A stretch of 45,391 nt of DNA from a virus. The notes under the pieces were generated by a model. That model made no database searches, was not told the origin of the DNA, and saw only the letters and a list, made by a program, of their open reading frames with translations. Positions 20,463-43,445 of the stretch are shown here, in pieces. The translations under genes and the position numbers were made by a program. The stretch's first letter is position 1. Every line of letters begins with the position of its first letter. The DNA is taken from the IMG/VR virus record IMGVR_UViG_3300029251_000026; one strand, 5' to 3'.

Positions 20463-20732
20463 ATGTCGAAGAAAAAGAAAGTCAACCCATACCGAATACC
20501 GGCGACGCAGGGTGACATAGAAAAAGCCAAACGAGACGCAACGAACACGGCGGTTGCGTCTACATGGGCAATTATGTTTAGCGTTCTACGGGATAAAGAA
20601 GGGTACGACTATGACCGATTACGGCGGATATGGGACGAAACAAACTACCTCGCAGACAGCATCGCCCGAAAATACGTTAAAATCGACGATCTGATTGAAG
20701 AACTGCGGGAGAATGGAATAGCATTAGCATGA
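20463..20732 (+). CDS. Hypothetical protein
   Basis: ATG 7 nt after ggagg. The track ORF was trimmed from 20442. Confidence 0.5.
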   Translation: MSKKKKVNPYRIPATQGDIEKAKRDATNTAVASTWAIMFSVLRDKEGYDYDRLRRIWDETNYLADSIARKYVKIDDLIEELRENGIALA

Positions 20733-20944
20733 AAAAGAAAAGCGAATGCGCTGGGTGCGCATACTGGCGGGTACTGGGTACAAGCCAAGGGTCTAAGCTA
20801 TGGGCGTGTCATTATTTGATCGACACGGGGAAATCGCGCGGATGTGAACCGGGTGTGGGTTGCGTCCGCAAGGCGGCGAGAATCAGCCGCCGCAGGCGAT
20901 ATACACAGCATGGTGTGGAGGAGGTAGTGGCACACGACGACTAA
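20729..20944 (+). CDS. Hypothetical Cys-rich protein
   Basis: ATGA-coupled. CAGCAYW...CHY...C...C pattern. Confidence 0.45.
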   Translation: MKKKSECAGCAYWRVLGTSQGSKLWACHYLIDTGKSRGCEPGVGCVRKAARISRRRRYTQHGVEEVVAHDD

Positions 20945-21347
20945 AGAATGGCTCAGACGAGGGATTGATCTGGAAAAATCAATCTCTGCACTGGAAGAAG
21001 CACGAGTAAGGGCGTGGACGCGGGCGACAAGCGCAACAGCGACGATCAAGGACACGCCGGGCGGCGGCGGTGACGTGACCGCAAACAAGGCGGATGCGTA
21101 TCTTGCCCTGTCCGAGAAGATACAGCGAGAGCAGGAACGGCTTGCACTGATTAAGGCCGAGATTATCAGCACAACGGCTAAGGTACAGGATGCGGCGCTG
21201 CGGGCGCTGCTGATCGAACATTACGTGAACGGTAGAACGTGGAGAGAGACCGCCGAAAAGATACACTACAACGAGGATCATGTGCGCGGACGGATGCACG
21301 TTCGCGCCCTGCGGGAAGTGGAGAAGTTATTAACAGATTGTGCATGA
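20934..21347 (+). CDS. ArpU/RinA/DUF1492-like late transcriptional regulator; apparent ACG start (conservative GTG start at 21075)
   Basis: The frame is open from 20928. TTKEWLRRGIDLEKSISALEEARVRAWTRATSATATIKDTPGGGG...LLIEHYVNGRTWRETAEKIHYNEDHVRGRMHVRALREVEKLL fits the full-length family layout. GGAGGAGG lies at 20917-20924. There is no ATG/GTG/TTG before 21075. Confidence 0.5.
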   Translation, partial: TTTKEWLRRGIDLEKSISALEEARVRAWTRATSATATIKDTPGGGGDVTANKADAYLALSEKIQREQERLALIKAEIISTTAKVQDAALRALLIEHYVNGRTWRETAEKIHYNEDHVRGRMHVRALREVEKLLTDCA

Positions 21348-21361
21348 ATCTGTGGAAAACT

Positions 21362-21395
21362 TACCACACTATACCACAAAAACTGGTGTTATAAT
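21362..21395 (+). promoter_or_regulatory. Extended -10 promoter (TGtTATAAT) with tandem TACCACA heptamers in place of a -35
   Basis: tgttataat 21387-21395. taccaca at 21362-21368 and 21372-21378, 10 bp apart. Confidence 0.5.
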
Positions 21396-21476
21396 AGTAT
21401 TGTGATAAAAGCTCGTAAGAGCAGAATCACGGAGTTTCGTTCCTCCGCTTTCAGCCCGCCGAAAGGCGGGCACACG

Positions 21477-21504
21477 CCCGGAAGCCTGCGTGAGGGCTGA
21501 CGGG
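21477..21504 (+). repeat. ncRNA hairpin module M1
   Basis: CCCG gaa GCC tgcgtgag GGC tga CGGG. Confidence 0.7.
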
Positions 21505-21570
21505 TGACAAGCCTTTCTGTTTAACCCCAAATACCTACTTAAAGCGGTGGGGAGACCTGCCGCTGACCTG

Positions 21571-21598
21571 CTCCAAAGTCTGCATGAGGGCAGAGGAG
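21571..21598 (+). repeat. ncRNA hairpin module M2
   Basis: CTCC aaa GTC tgcatgag GGC aga GGAG. Confidence 0.7.
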
Positions 21599-21678
21599 CA
21601 AAACGCCTTTCGCGGAACGAAGGCATTGATTATCCTTTCTATTCTTTCGGCGTGTCTTTTGCGCGGCACGCCGATATG

Positions 21679-21706
21679 CTCCAAAGCCTGCATGAGGGTG
21701 ACGGAG
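21679..21706 (+). repeat. ncRNA hairpin module M3
   Basis: CTCC aaa GCC tgcatgag GGT gac GGAG. Confidence 0.7.
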
Positions 21707-21773
21707 TAATAACATATACGCTAAAATTGAGAATGTGTTGCGGTGTCTGCGGGCAACAGTCAACGCAAACATG

Positions 21774-21801
21774 CCCGGATGGCTGCGTGAGGCCGGACGG
21801 G
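21774..21801 (+). repeat. ncRNA hairpin module M4
   Basis: CCCG gat GGC tgcgtgag GCC gga CGGG. Confidence 0.7.
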
Positions 21802-21886
21802 TAACGTATGGAATCTTTTTAGCCAAGGGCAACGTGGCGGAATTTTGGCAAGCCTTGCATGGTGGACAACGTGCAAGGCAATCTGT

Positions 21887-21912
21887 TCCCGAAGCTGCAT
21901 GAGGCAGAGGGA
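21887..21912 (+). repeat. ncRNA hairpin module M5
   Basis: TCCC gaa GC tgcatgag GC aga GGGA. Confidence 0.65.
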
Positions 21913-22510
21913 GCAAAACGCCTCCAACGAGGACGATGATATTCGGACAGCTCGGAAAGACGAGCACTGTTTCCGAACAATGCTGGACTGCTGCAACAGT
22001 TCGGCAGAGTTTCGCGGGTGCTTGCAGGCACGCCGCAACCGGGGTCGCTCCCCGCTGTAACCTAATAAGGGAATCAGCCGGATTACAGACCGATAGCAAC
22101 TGCGACACGACGGAGAGCAACGCCGAACAGCCCATAATGAGAGGGAGAGTGCTGACCGGATAAGCACTCACACGGACTTAGTGAGCCGAGAAGCAAAACC
22201 ACCGGTACAAAGTTACAAAGCCGATACGGCGCTTCGGGCGGCTAAGTACACGCCGCGAAAGAGCACCAGCTGCTTATCTCTTGTAAGCATACCTAATCAT
22301 CAGGACGGAAACACAAGTAAACTTGCGAAAGTGAGGTTATTACCTTTCTGGATTTCATACAACCGTTCTGGACAGCGGCGCAAGCCTCGGTAAAAGCCCG
22401 ACGTACAGACGCGACGATAGCGCCCATACCTCCCTGTGGAGGTATACCGGTTTGCATAGTTGCTGAAAGCAGGTGCGAGTCCTGCAAAACCGAAACAGTC
22501 GTATAATGGG

Positions 22511-22548
22511 AAACCCCGCTCACCTTATGGCTTTGGTGAGCGGGGTTT
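22511..22548. terminator. Bidirectional terminator (end of the ncRNA and end of the minus-strand cassette)
   Basis: Perfect 14-bp stem aaaccccgctcacc / ggtgagcggggttt with a 10-nt loop. T-rich on the + side and tttccc on the - side. Confidence 0.7.
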
Positions 22549-22554
22549 GTCATG

Positions 22555-23544
22555 CTATTTAATTCTGTGGCCGAGACGGATTTCTTCTTCGGTCCAGCCG
22601 GCTTTACGGCGGAAGTAGTCTCTGCTCAACTCGGCTACATGCTTTTTACGGCAAGCAGGACAGTATTTAGACCGCGCGCCGCCGGTGAAATGCTCTCCGC
22701 ACATCATGCAGATGTGCGGTATTTTGGCGTGCGCCGCCGAAATGGCTTTACCTGCGCCTATGTGCAGGTTTCTTTCGCAACCGCATGATTTTACCTCGGA
22801 CGAGTAAAAGTACACTTGAGAGCGGTCAATCACGCGGCCACACTTTTTGCAGCGTGCGCGGAAACGGGTTTCTCCGTCCTCATTGCGATAGCGCTCTACG
22901 ATCTCAAATGGTCCGTCGGCTTGCAACAGCGGCGGGAGAACATAGCCGACAGCATGTGCTTCCACGATCTTGGGAAAGGGAACGAACTTCGGCGGGGCGG
23001 CGGTTATACCGCGCTTGCTGTCCGTCTTGCGCTGGCTCTCCTGTTTGGCTTTCTGGCGGCAGGCATCGGAACAGTAATACTTTTCCGGGCTGTCTGGCGG
23101 AATTTCAGCGCCGCAGACCTTACAAAATCGGTCGGTGTGGCGGATGCGCTCCTTGCGGTAGTCCTCCATATAGGCGCGGCCCTGGGCGTTATCGGCGGCT
23201 TTGACCGCCTCGGCGGCGCAGTCCGGACAATAGCGCTGGCGTGCTGACTTGACGATATACGGCTTGCCGCATACCTCGCACAAGTCGGTGGAGCCAAGAG
23301 GGCGCACGGTGCCTTTCTCGCGTTGACGGCGGTTTGCTTCGCGCTGGCGCTCGGCGCGGCAGTCCGGGCAGTACCACGCACGCGGACCACCATCAAACAC
23401 CTTGCCGCACTGGCGGCAGGTGCGCGGGCGCATGGTGGACTTAATGCTTTTTGCGGCGCAATCCGGGCACTTTACCTGATCATCGTACTGCGGCAGGAAA
23501 ACCCCACCGCAGGAGATGCATTTTCTGGGTGCTCTTGTTGGCAT
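22555..23544 (-). CDS. Multi-zinc-ribbon protein (six CxxCG...YCPxC-type repeats), function unknown
   Basis: 329 aa. CISCG..KCPDC, CRQCG..YCPDC, CEVCG..YCPDC, CKVCG..YCSDAC, CKKCG..SCGC, CMMCG..YCPAC. GGGAGG RBS. Confidence 0.7.
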   Translation of the reverse strand: MPTRAPRKCISCGGVFLPQYDDQVKCPDCAAKSIKSTMRPRTCRQCGKVFDGGPRAWYCPDCRAERQREANRRQREKGTVRPLGSTDLCEVCGKPYIVKSARQRYCPDCAAEAVKAADNAQGRAYMEDYRKERIRHTDRFCKVCGAEIPPDSPEKYYCSDACRQKAKQESQRKTDSKRGITAAPPKFVPFPKIVEAHAVGYVLPPLLQADGPFEIVERYRNEDGETRFRARCKKCGRVIDRSQVYFYSSEVKSCGCERNLHIGAGKAISAAHAKIPHICMMCGEHFTGGARSKYCPACRKKHVAELSRDYFRRKAGWTEEEIRLGHRIK

Positions 23545-23556
23545 GGCATTGCCTCC

Positions 23557-23892
23557 CTATGCGATGATGGAGATAACAACAGGATCGGAAATAATAACCT
23601 CACCTGCGTCCTCGCCGTACTCGTAAGAGTTACCCGCGATAACGGCGATGTGGCGACCGAAATAGTCACCGTTATAGCGCGCGGAATCATCCAGCGCGTT
23701 TACCTTGATACCGCATAATCCGTTGAGTTCCTCGCCGGTGTCCTCGCCGTTGTCCCAGATGTGGGAAACGTGGTCGATCTCACCGAGCGCGAAGGGCTCT
23801 TCCTGCTTGCGGACTGCGATGCATGCGTAATCAAAATCATATTCTTCCGCGACTGCGGCGATACGGTCGCGCTGCTCTTTGGTAAGGGTCAT
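23557..23892 (-). CDS. Small strongly acidic protein, hypothetical
   Basis: 111 aa with 23 Asp/Glu and 8 Lys/Arg. AGGAGG RBS and its own promoter. Confidence 0.6.
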   Translation of the reverse strand: MTLTKEQRDRIAAVAEEYDFDYACIAVRKQEEPFALGEIDHVSHIWDNGEDTGEELNGLCGIKVNALDDSARYNGDYFGRHIAVIAGNSYEYGEDAGEVIISDPVVISIIA

Positions 23893-23915
23893 TGTTGTTA
23901 CCTCCTGTTATGTAT

Positions 23916-23944
23916 ATTGTACCGCTGATTCGGTGCGGTGACAA
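23916..23944 (-). promoter_or_regulatory. Internal minus-strand promoter TTGTCA-17-TACAAT
   Basis: The plus strand reads attgta (23916-23921) and tgacaa (23939-23944), with a 17-bp spacer. An A-rich tract lies upstream. Confidence 0.5.
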
Positions 23945-24018
23945 GCGTTTTTTATATCTTCCGCCGCGGGTGCGTGAGCCGGGCGGGAGAATGAGAGGGG
24001 GTGGTGAGGCTCCCATGC

Positions 24019-24821: not shown

Positions 24822-24907
24822 TATCATTGCTCAATGATAAACAATAGGCAAAGTGAACATAATTGAGCAATGATATTTAGTGGAATTGTATAATTGAGCA
24901 ATGATAA
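24822..24907. promoter_or_regulatory. Triplicated operator ATTGAGCAATGATA in the divergent control region
   Basis: tatcattgctcaatgata (24822-24839, quasi-palindrome, inverted copy). ataattgagcaatgata at 24859-24875 and 24890-24906, 31 bp apart. Confidence 0.65.
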
Positions 24908-24941
24908 CGGCTGTGGTACACTATAACAGGGAGGTGATACC

Positions 24942-25124
24942 ATGGCAGTTGACCCAAACGCACGAACACGGGCGAGTAATAAGTATAACGCGAAAGCATA
25001 CGATCGGCTTAATATCGTAGTACCCAAAGGAGAACGCGAACGCATTAAGGAGTATGCAGCCAGCAAGGGCGAGAGCCTGAACAGCTACGTCTATAAGCTG
25101 ATAACGGCAGACATGGACAAGTAA
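24942..25124 (+). CDS. Ribbon-helix-helix (Arc/CopG-like) DNA-binding protein
   Basis: 60 aa. NAKAYDRLNIVVPKGERERIKEYAASKGESLNSYVYKLI is a beta-strand plus two-helix RHH pattern. GGGAGGTG RBS and its own terminator. Confidence 0.6.
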   Translation: MAVDPNARTRASNKYNAKAYDRLNIVVPKGERERIKEYAASKGESLNSYVYKLITADMDK

Positions 25125-25140
25125 CATATTGTAAGCAGAC

Positions 25141-25176
25141 AAAAGCCGCTCCAAGCAACCGGGGCGGCTTTTTTGT
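25141..25176 (+). terminator. Rho-independent terminator after the RHH gene
   Basis: aaaagccgctcc...ggggcggctttttt. Confidence 0.7.
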
Positions 25177-25203: not shown

Positions 25204-25587
25204 ATGGACAAGCTGACCGCAAAGCAGCGGGCATGGATTGATTACTACAAGCAAGGCAAGACAGCTACAGAGGCGGCACGGCTTGCCGGTTACAAGGGAA
25301 ATAATCACCACACGATAGGCGCACAAAACTTAGCAAAACTAAGCAAATACGTATCAGACCGCGACGAGCTGTTAGACCGTGCCCGTGTGGCGGATATGGC
25401 GGAGATTAACGCATTTTGGAGCGACATCATGAGAGATGATACAGCGGACATCAAGGACCGTCTGAAAGCCTCTGAGCTGCGCGCACGGAGTATCGGCGCA
25501 TTTATCGAGCGTCGGGAAATCGTAGGAGCGCAGACGATCACGGTAAAGCTGCTGGACGATGATGAGGAAATGAAAGATACAGAGTAA
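25204..25587 (+). CDS. terS: Terminase small subunit
   Basis: 127 aa. LTAKQRAWIDYYKQGKTATEAARLAGYKG...AQNL is the typical Terminase_2/P27-type N-terminal HTH. Confidence 0.75.
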   Translation: MDKLTAKQRAWIDYYKQGKTATEAARLAGYKGNNHHTIGAQNLAKLSKYVSDRDELLDRARVADMAEINAFWSDIMRDDTADIKDRLKASELRARSIGAFIERREIVGAQTITVKLLDDDEEMKDTE

Positions 25588-41959: not shown

Positions 41960-41990
41960 AAAAGCAGGTGGAAACACCTGCTTTTATTTT
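41960..41990 (+). terminator. Rho-independent terminator
   Basis: aaaagcaggtg-gaaa-cacctgctttt followed by atttt. Confidence 0.75.
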
Positions 41991-43417: not shown

Positions 43418-43445
43418 GGGGGCGGCTTAACCGCCCCTTCTTTTA
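43418..43445 (+). terminator. Rho-independent terminator
   Basis: ggggcgg-cttaa-ccgcccc followed by ttctttta. Confidence 0.65.

Follow-up and report, generated by a model that had tools for sequence, protein, structure and literature searches.

A large structured RNA with a variable array of hairpin modules and a tRNA-like 3' end, predicted downstream of a putative late activator gene in human-gut phages

The viral DNA analyzed here (IMG/VR record IMGVR_UViG_3300029251_000026; 45,391 nt, hereafter the window) contains a 1.2-kb stretch, 21348–22554, that is bounded on one side by the stop codon of a regulator gene (21347) and on the other by the stop codon of a converging minus-strand gene (22555). 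On the evidence of its sequence and of its homologs, the plus strand of this stretch is a non-coding RNA gene, with a transcript of about 1.15 kb predicted to start at a promoter of its own. The RNA is a new family of a broadly known kind, that of large structured phage non-coding RNAs and leader RNAs, and its distinctive features are an array of hairpin modules of variable number, a tRNA-like 3' end and a position directly after a putative late activator gene of the Ltr type. A previous sequence-only reading of this DNA had proposed a large ornate plus-strand RNA with an activator-type promoter and its own terminator, a proposal now supported by covariation, strand-specific G·U pairs, a conserved promoter and terminator, and the architecture shared by divergent homologs. 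It had missed the five-copy module array, which is the dominant feature of the RNA, the long-range helix that closes the 3' core and the tRNA-like 3' minihelix.

Cmscan against Rfam 15 gave no match at the gathering score over the whole window and none at E ≤ 10 over 21200–22700. In the absence of any Rfam match to the window, the RNA belongs to none of the families GOLLD, ROOL, HEARO, OLE and raiA; the covariance models of these five families likewise found nothing in two divergent homologs, L290 and L291 (thresholds E ≤ 10 and E ≤ 1). The sequence-only reading, which could assign no known family and had suggested such a scan, was thus right on this point. The likeness to GOLLD and ROOL that it had seen holds for size and context and fails for membership, there being no Rfam match even at E ≤ 10. 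The RNA was not described in the full-text literature searched.

A protein-coding gene was ruled out by the lack of a protein family match, the lack of a three-nucleotide periodicity and the presence of frame-breaking indels, so that the locus is coding-free, as had been claimed. The open reading frames (ORFs) that a mechanical list gives for 21348–22554 overlap one another on both strands, and the nine located inside 21369–22553 had no Pfam match at E ≤ 0.1, save one of chance level. Codon periodicity was absent from 44 homologs (27, 23 and 29 variable sites per phase in the module array; 59, 60 and 55 in the 3' half). Finally, relatives are separated by insertions and deletions of whole modules (about 94–112 nt), and indels whose lengths are not multiples of three occur among them.

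Conservation of the structure was assessed with an alignment of 45 sequences (A2), whose RNAalifold consensus fold comprises 259 pairs in 50 helices. As these sequences are mostly close relatives, the counts include inherited changes, and the divergent homologs described below provide an independent check. In A2, 99.6% of the cells were paired, compared to 98.2% in shuffles (0/500), and 23 pairs were changed on both sides, compared to 11.2 ± 1.6 in shuffles (0/500) and 1–8 in slid controls; covariation thus lies above background, as the sequence-only reading would have it. The covariation score was 0.081, against 0.054 in shuffles and 0.014–0.027 in slid controls. G·U cells outnumber A·C cells by 1369 to 16, which identifies the plus strand as the RNA strand. 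Folding of the consensus yields −321.6 kcal/mol for the plus strand and −245.1 kcal/mol for the minus strand, and the z-scores of single-sequence folds, for the array and the 3' domain respectively, are −5.5 and −2.8 (plus) versus −3.1 and −1.2 (minus).

More than 130 related human-gut phage contigs and one metagenome-assembled genome (MAG) of Subdoligranulum variabile carry the locus, with promoter and terminator conserved. A three-copy loop pattern retrieved 65 loci from IMG/VR, of which 63 were real, and a pattern for the 3' part retrieved 13 further contigs. In a metagenome scan, 55 of the 63 matches were real human-gut contigs and the other eight an unrelated gene; in a scan of a genome collection, a single match out of 25 was real, the S. 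variabile MAG, and 24 were unrelated. The relatives from IMG/VR, metagenomes and the MAG are 79–98% identical over the RNA, and the occurrence of the RNA in the MAG points to Subdoligranulum or its relatives as the host. A looser three-copy loop pattern retrieved only unrelated repeats from IMG/VR (pentapeptide and coiled-coil genes, satellite-like sequences), and blastn against the INPHARED phages gave no match to the RNA. None of the relatives found through their TerL (40–81% identity) has the RNA, which therefore travels with the regulator module and not with the terminase. Much more divergent copies were reached via relatives of the regulator: L291 and L292, with three modules (97.7 bits with R1, a covariance model built from the 3' part of the core), L290, with two modules (57.7 bits, E 1e-14), and L298 and L299, with two modules. 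R1 recovers L242, L257, L290 and L291. L290, L291 and L298 keep every element of the RNA with different stem sequences.

The 5' part of the RNA consists of a short leader and the module array:

21402–21446, plus strand: 5' leader, GUGAU...AUCAC enclosing GCUC-GUAA-GAGC, then GGAG...CUCC (alignment helices 4–6)
21454–21506, plus strand: module 1; P1 GCCCGCC-GAAA-GGCGGGC at 21454–21471, hairpin at 21475–21506 with P2 CGCCCG/CGGGUG, a purine-rich internal loop, P3 GCC/GGC and loop UGCGUGAG
21543–21600, plus strand: module 2; P1 at 21543–21564, hairpin at 21569–21600 with P2 UGCUCC/GGAGCA and loop UGCAUGAG
21649–21708, plus strand: module 3; P1 at 21649–21672, hairpin at 21677–21708 with P2 UGCUCC/GGAGUA, including a G·U pair, and loop UGCAUGAG
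21738–21803, plus strand: module 4; P1 at 21738–21768, hairpin at 21772–21803 with P2 UGCCCG/CGGGUA, P3 GGC/GCC and loop UGCGUGAG
21852–21915, plus strand: module 5; P1 GCCUUGCA...UGCAAGGC at 21852–21879, hairpin at 21884–21915 with P2 UGUUCCC/GGGAGCA and loop UGCAUGAG

In the leader, pair 74/81 is CG in 36 sequences and UA in nine, and L290 has the version GCCCC/GGGGC; the invariant GTGATAAAA of the leader is also −10-like. The array was recognized by a repeat search, which returned five copies of an element of about 41 nt (at 21467, 21561, 21669, 21764 and 21876) that are spaced by 94–112 nt and 63–78% alike. The conserved hairpin of each module is made of a P2 stem of 6–7 bp, a 3×3 purine-rich internal loop, a P3 stem of 3 bp and a loop that reads UGCRUGAG in the window and YGCRYGAG across relatives; the first base of the loop pairs with the last (U·G or C-G), so that the six bases GCRYGA remain as a hexaloop. 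Each conserved hairpin is preceded by a P1 hairpin of unrelated sequence, and the two form a two-stem-loop module of 53–66 nt. As seen above, the P2 stems of the five copies are unlike yet paired. In the module hairpin, 97.7% of the cells are paired, compared to 83.5% in shuffles, and the covariation score is 0.515, compared to 0.246. Fourteen module hairpins from six lineages have one common shape and unrelated stems. Module 4 is the most variable copy among relatives, and its P3 went from GGC/GCC to GGC/GUC to GAC/GUC, via G·U intermediates; in module 5, pair 561/572 is GC in 37 sequences and AU in five. Two of the P1 stems (cccgcc-GAAA-ggcggg at 21455–21470 and gccttgca/tgcaaggc at 21852–21879) had already been picked out by the sequence-only reading; both are real and conserved.

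The number of modules varies from two to five: of 74 distinct arrays, 4, 6, 21 and 43 have two, three, four and five modules, respectively. The breakpoints of the arrays fall within the conserved cores, which indicates that modules are probably gained and lost by unequal crossing-over. The loop complement, CTCAYGCA, is not enriched in the phage genome, where it has one chance match, on the plus strand. The idea that the loop displays a start codon for tRNA-fMet or acts as a self-complementary kissing loop (UGCA/CAUG) is weakened by the loops UGCACGAG of L242 and CGCACGAG of L257 and L291. The tail of module 1 (21516–21524) reads CUGUUUAAC, and a related CCUUUCU recurs at 21632–21643; we take the former to resemble the boxA core of rrn/nut antitermination sites (GCUCUUUAAC).

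The 3' part contains the following elements:

about 21920–21934, plus strand: hairpin
21950–21965, plus strand: hairpin GCUCG-GAAAGA-CGAGC (helix 27)
21967–22498, plus strand: 3' core domain of about 530 nt closed by CUGUUUC/GAAACAG (helices 28–49, many of them covarying, with GNRA loops)
22377–22401, plus strand: GNRA hairpin GGC-GCAA-GCC, then hairpin UCGG-UAAAAGC-CCGA (helices 44 and 45)
22426–22445, plus strand: hairpin AUACCUCC-CUGU-GGAGGUAU (helix 47)
22448–22492, plus strand: tRNA-like minihelix, with an acceptor-like stem CGGUUUG/AAAACCG (22448–22454 with 22486–22492) and a T-arm GCAGG-UGCGAGU-CCUGC (22469–22485)
22511–22548, both strands: intrinsic terminator with a perfect 14-bp G+C-rich stem (helix 50)

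The stem at 21950–21965 is GCUCG/CGAGC in about half of the sequences and GUCCG/CGGAC in the other half, with compensatory double changes in 21 sequences (UA 23/CG 21 and CG 24/UA 21), and it is GCCCG/CGGGC in L290. The helix closing the core is invariant, hence devoid of covariation, and is plausible. Helix 44 changes from GGC-GCAA-GCC to CGG-GAAA-CCG and UGA-GAGA-UCA (GC 26/UA 12/CG 7 and CG 23/AU 15/GC 7), its loop (GCAA, GAAA or GAGA) remaining of the GNRA type in all versions, and helix 45 changes from UCGG/CCGA to CCGG/CCGG (UA 33/CG 12). The hairpin at 22426–22445 has as counterparts AUACCGC-GAAA-GCGGUAU in L242 and AUACCCC-GAAA-GGGGUAU in L290.

Several of these helices had been proposed beforehand. 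The one at 22426–22445 (atacctcc-CTGT-ggaggtat) is real, with compensation in L060 and L242, and the perfect 14-bp terminator stem is present at 22511–22548. In the nested helix at 21942–21977, the inner part (gctcg-GAAAGA-cgagc) stands, with its compensation in 21 sequences, while the outer part (ttcgga/tccgaa) does not, as most homologs have an uncompensated TTCTGA. The remark that GAAA-type loops occur only in the plus sense agrees with the GNRA loops, which make sense on that strand only.

The minihelix has the acceptor/T-arm geometry of a tRNA (7 bp, 5 bp and a 7-nt loop) with covariation, and lacks a CCA end, a D arm, an anticodon arm and a tag ORF. The T-arm abuts the 3' strand of the acceptor, as in tRNA, and the 14-nt linker holds a conserved CAUAG. 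In nine sequences, pairing is kept, save in one case, at the six Watson–Crick positions of the acceptor, where two to four pair types occur per position; for the acceptor as a whole the range is two to five, and the helix covaries throughout. In L298, the T-arm is canonical (GCCGG-UUCGAUU-CCGGC), the acceptor is GGGGACA/UGUCCCC, and a fragment of the T-arm is matched by the Rfam tmRNA model; ARAGORN called no tRNA or tmRNA at the locus or in the homolog.

The terminator is bidirectional and shared with the converging minus-strand cassette, since it abuts the stop codon of the converging gene. The terminators of L290 and L291 have long stems (about 16–20 bp by our reading) and a clear plus-strand U-tract. 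In L038 and L054, the 10-nt terminator loop (homologous to 22525–22534) is inverted, AAAGCCATAA versus TTATGGCTTT: the palindromic hairpin has flipped, its stems being otherwise the same. In L026, L011, L052 and L257, about 190 nt of the core center (homologous to about 22150–22340) are replaced by an unrelated sequence that keeps the islands GAGAGG, ACGGAC, GAGCCG, GAGGU..ACCUCUCU and GAUUUCAUAC and has hairpins at the same places, which looks like a module swap inside the RNA.

Upstream of the RNA lie a putative regulator and its putative target:

20991–21347, plus strand: late transcriptional activator gene, putative (LtrB/DUF1492-like, sigma-70 region-4-type helix-turn-helix), from DUF1492 matches in the wider family
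21362–21368 and 21372–21378, plus strand: two direct heptamers TACCACA in 10-bp phase, at about −40 to −24, putative Ltr activator binding site
21387–21395, plus strand: extended −10 promoter TGtTATAAT without a −35, from sequence and conservation

The reading frame of the regulator is open from 20928 and has no ATG; a TTG at 20991 gives a 118-aa protein. This form is known in databases, while the family members have about 137 aa, and the frame is open 147 nt upstream of the start chosen by the ORF lister, the 20928–21075 stretch matching the N-terminus of the family (TKEWLRRG...). The protein itself gave only sub-threshold matches, to sigma70_r4 and Phage_antitermQ. Its wider family comprises 1057 representatives (HMMER), and 14 of 40 relatives match PF07374 (DUF1492; best E 2e-6), that is, the LtrB family of late activators. 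From the grouping of its relatives, its own matches being sub-threshold, the protein is probably a late activator of the LtrB/DUF1492 type. A Q-type antiterminator would fit the layout; this candidate was rejected, as the regulator belongs to none of the Q families of Pfam (PF06530, PF03589 and PF06323), PF06530 reaching 18.5–21.7 bits against a cutoff of 26, and as its more distant relatives group with DUF1492/Ltr. The structure search was empty: the AlphaFold2 model was poor (predicted local distance difference test score, 67.6), and neither Foldseek nor a sequence search of the PDB returned a match. Just upstream of the regulator gene, at 20729–20944, lies a 71-aa Cys-rich ORF without a family match, whose arginine-rich C-terminal tail (RKAARISRRRRY) resembles RNA-binding arginine-rich motifs.

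The direct repeats to which an Ltr protein binds are located right after the gene of that protein (Quiles-Puchalt et al., PMC3753634). The TACCACA repeats have this placement: they begin 15 nt past the regulator stop codon, and the tandem site is found nowhere else in the window. Moreover, three repeat types (TACCACA; [G/A]CTACA; AATACA/AATACT) co-occur with three variants of the recognition helix of the regulator. The sequence TGGTG.TATAAT is invariant in the 45 aligned sequences, and the promoter is also found in L290, L291 and L242; transcription would start at about 21402. Both the promoter and the pair of heptamers had been noticed in the sequence-only reading, at the positions confirmed here.

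The phage is of the temperate siphophage type and encodes an integrase, Gp157, a Rad52-like protein, HNH nucleases and a methylase. Its packaging genes lie further downstream (terS at 25204–25587, TerL from 25760). Between the RNA terminator and terS are found a variable minus-strand cassette, absent or replaced in many relatives and 2.3 kb long in the window, three operator-like boxes, a gene for a 60-aa ribbon–helix–helix (RHH)-like protein and a terminator:

25141–25172, plus strand: second strong terminator, 12 pairs, between the 60-aa RHH gene and terS, conserved in relatives of all three regulator types

The 22555–23950 stretch, which encodes a 329-aa multi-zinc-ribbon protein (DZR_2) and contains a neighboring 111-aa ORF, is marked as a mosaic minus-strand 'moron' cassette by the absence or replacement of these ORFs in many relatives (e.g. 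L114, L002 and L006). The three boxes, ATTG(A/C)(G/T)CAATGATA, at 24829–24908, overlap −10-like elements (CATAAT, TATAAT) upstream of the RHH-like ORF (about 24942–25125); they were rejected as Ltr targets, being identical in relatives of all three regulator types. On the plus strand, terminator-like hairpins are also present between late-region ORFs at 41960–41985 and 43418–43438; if they are functional, read-through would be needed there as well.

The location of the RNA bears on its possible function. An Ltr protein is the sole phage factor needed for expression of the whole late cluster, which is driven from a single promoter (Quiles-Puchalt et al., PMC3753634). Since the only recognizable site of the activator is the promoter of the RNA, and since Ltr drives the late cluster from one promoter, we infer that the RNA is the 5' part of the late transcription unit, downstream of an LtrB-dependent promoter. 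The RNA is always in the sense orientation relative to the late genes, between these genes and the late promoter, with one or two intrinsic terminators before terS/terL. A late-leader placement is supported by the strong terminator directly before terS in the window and by the gene order in L298, a synteny shared by L290 and L291. In L298, all elements are in the sense orientation: the activator gene, the RNA, an ordinary 8-bp terminator, the Shine–Dalgarno sequence and ATG of the first late gene within about 10 nt of this terminator, a gene for a small helix-turn-helix-type protein at the terS position, and TerL.

We tentatively propose, with a probability of roughly 40%, that the RNA acts in cis on late transcription, by an antitermination akin to that mediated by the put and conAn RNAs. 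An Ltr-like activator bound to the TACCACA repeats would drive synthesis of the 1.15-kb transcript from the promoter at 21387–21395, and the nascent RNA would act in cis on the polymerase that transcribes it. Its put-like modules of two hairpins each would attach to the elongation complex, either by themselves or together with a factor, and render the polymerase resistant to termination. Late transcription could then cross the leader terminator and, here, also the antisense cassette and the terS-proximal terminator. The tRNA-like end may be a processing or stability signal. Given that the RNA appears to sit at the 5' end of an LtrB-dependent late unit, we consider a cis role at least as likely as a GOLLD-like role in trans.

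Several observations weigh against antitermination in cis. No known antiterminator RNA comes near this one in size or elaboration, and the core and the tRNA-like end would be superfluous for a put-like action. The terminator stems of the window, L290 and L291 are at least 14 bp long, and such stems resist conAn antitermination (PMC10325885). The strong conservation of the RNA in spite of the 2.3-kb antisense cassette suggests a function independent of read-through, and the promoter-like elements associated with the three boxes at 24.83–24.91 kb could drive terS separately. The pairing of regulator types with repeat types, about 40 bp apart, could reflect plain linkage, and in L294–L297 the regulator relatives are directly followed by further ORFs (a terminase gene in L294), with no large RNA. 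The size and complexity of the RNA, its long terminator stems and its conservation even where the antisense cassette parts it from the late genes instead favor the main rival explanation, a stand-alone ornate RNA that would act in trans, be made late under Ltr control and end at its own terminator. Its hairpins, with their identical loops, would be multivalent sponge or scaffold sites for a phage or host protein or RNA, and its core and tRNA-like end would pack into a stable, compact particle that might form oligomers, as ROOL and GOLLD do. In favor of this explanation, the locus is a discrete unit that has a promoter of its own and ends in a terminator with a very long stem; the core is large and closed and combines GNRA loops with a T-loop and long-range helices; and the hairpin copy number varies from two to five, as it does in sponge RNAs. 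The phage-borne GOLLD and ROOL provide precedents (PMC12286853). We nonetheless hold it to be somewhat unlikely: the complement of the hairpin loops is not enriched in the phage genome, the loop palindromes vary (L242, L257 and L291), and the locus always lies in sense between the late promoter and the late genes, the RNA of L298 being directly in the 5' leader, with its terminator about 10 nt before the Shine–Dalgarno sequence.

The tRNA-like end lends itself to another explanation, which we judge improbable, namely that RNase P and tRNA 3'-end enzymes recognize the 3' minihelix and that the modules are folding or stability elements. Processing would yield two products, a large RNA that is stable and a small one that resembles a tRNA, in the style of MALAT1 and mascRNA, or else would part the non-coding leader from the late mRNA. 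Ltr phages are reported to process their late transcripts (PMC3753634), and the geometry of the minihelix covaries in six lineages, with the loop UUCGAUU in L298. However, no CCA is encoded, ARAGORN makes no call, 12–26 nt stand in place of the D and anticodon arms, and T-loops are also common as purely structural modules; moreover, the conserved YGCRYGAG loops would be left unexplained. Taken by itself, a processing role of the tRNA-like end is compatible with an action in cis or in trans. It is also doubtful, and would be more far-reaching, that host tRNA enzymes (RNase P, the CCA-adding enzyme, perhaps a synthetase or EF-Tu) process, stabilize or charge an RNA of more than 1 kb whose modules reprogram RNA polymerase for the late operon. 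If this is true, phages of Gram-positive gut bacteria would have an RNA-based switch for their late genes that belongs to a new class, and the RNA would be a phage counterpart of the eukaryotic and viral RNAs with tRNA-like ends. An element operating at the DNA level (cos or pac site, terminase-binding repeats, iteron origin), or a degenerate CRISPR-like or toxin–antitoxin array, is very improbable. In siphophages of Gram-positive bacteria, the interval from the last early gene to terS often holds the cos or pac site, and dispersed direct repeats occupy it here; yet the compensatory changes go through G·U and not A·C, the GNRA loops are meaningful on the plus strand only, and the stems differ wholly between lineages while pairing is kept. 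As for a CRISPR array or a type III toxin–antitoxin repeat RNA, the copies are too dissimilar (63–78%), their 94–112-nt spacing is occupied by structured spacers, and the Pfam scan revealed no Cas or toxin domain in the ORFs that it covered.

Very few bacterial and phage RNAs of more than 0.7 kb are known to have a conserved architecture; if real and functional, the present RNA is a new family among them. It differs from GOLLD, ROOL and OLE in that its regulatory address is clear, directly downstream of a putative Ltr late activator gene and upstream of the packaging genes. Its placement as a leader yields the hypothesis of an RNA-dependent read-through of late-operon terminators; to our knowledge, no antitermination step has been reported in Ltr-controlled phages of Gram-positive bacteria. 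An array that copies and loses units and a tRNA-like 3' end are unusual design features, and the presumed hosts, Subdoligranulum and its relatives, are abundant human-gut commensals.

Comparison with known systems brings out both likenesses and differences. The put element of HK022, about 70 nt long, comprises two stem-loops, lies immediately past the promoter and has an effect at distances of more than 10 kb downstream (PMC9378689). The modules resemble it in layout, being pairs of adjacent stem-loops of comparable size (about 55–70 nt) in a promoter-proximal position, the first one about 50 nt past the inferred transcription start, with terminators before the genes to be expressed. In lambdoid coliphage HK022, however, put is a single element per operon, whereas the RNA described here, from phages of gut Clostridia, has two to five modules, a 530-nt core and a tRNA-like end. 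ConAn2 is a 260–600-nt RNA located beside a small protein gene in Gram-positive mobile elements (PMC8191782). Here too, a small regulatory protein gene is followed by a long structured RNA that heads a terminator-containing operon, and terminators with long stems would be the limits of the operon. By contrast, conAn1 and conAn2 are co-transcribed, while a separate promoter lies here between the protein gene and the RNA, the RNA is two to four times larger than conAn2, and the upstream protein groups with DUF1492/sigma70_r4 proteins of the Ltr type (no ConAn1 model was searched). The 6S leader of the lambda PR'–tR' region, on which Q acts, shares with the locus a regulator gene immediately upstream, a promoter whose −10 is strong, a further −10-like element within the stretch that is transcribed first and a terminator before the late genes, but the regulator of the window groups with DUF1492/Ltr and not with Q, and the leader is six times longer, with a conserved structure.

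Other likenesses concern parts of the RNA. In sponge RNAs of the CsrB/RsmZ type, too, hairpins recur in variable numbers and carry one and the same loop motif; this motif is GGA instead of YGCRYGAG, and the present RNA has in addition structured spacers and a large non-repetitive core. The tRNA-like domain of tmRNA, MALAT1 mascRNA and the tRNA-like structures at the 3' end of plant-virus RNAs are likewise coaxial acceptor/T-arm minihelices ending a larger RNA, from which the minihelix of the window differs by its missing CCA, D arm, anticodon arm and tag ORF and by the lack of an ARAGORN call. DUF3800-I, DUF3800-VIII, drum, skipping-rope and FuFi-1 are, like the present RNA, prophage-associated structured motifs ending in intrinsic terminators. 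DUF3800-VIII was described as an orphan prophage-associated motif with a 3' terminator (Weinberg et al. 2017) and measures 64 nt, compared to about 0.7–1.15 kb for the present RNA. Its model (RF03075) has no match in the window RNA, nor did the ORFs scanned against Pfam show a DUF3800 domain; in L298, a full-length copy lies in the spacer before module 2 (2732–2797; 62.2 bits, gathering score 40.2), next to a gene without a DUF3800 match. That DUF3800-VIII is a sub-element of the L298 homolog hints that other orphan prophage motifs, including those of the DUF3800 type, may be fragments of larger late-leader RNAs. Finally, GOLLD and ROOL resemble the present RNA in size (0.6–1.2 kb), in their many covarying helices and in their prophage context; what sets it apart from them is its variable-number module array and its probable position as the leader of the late operon.

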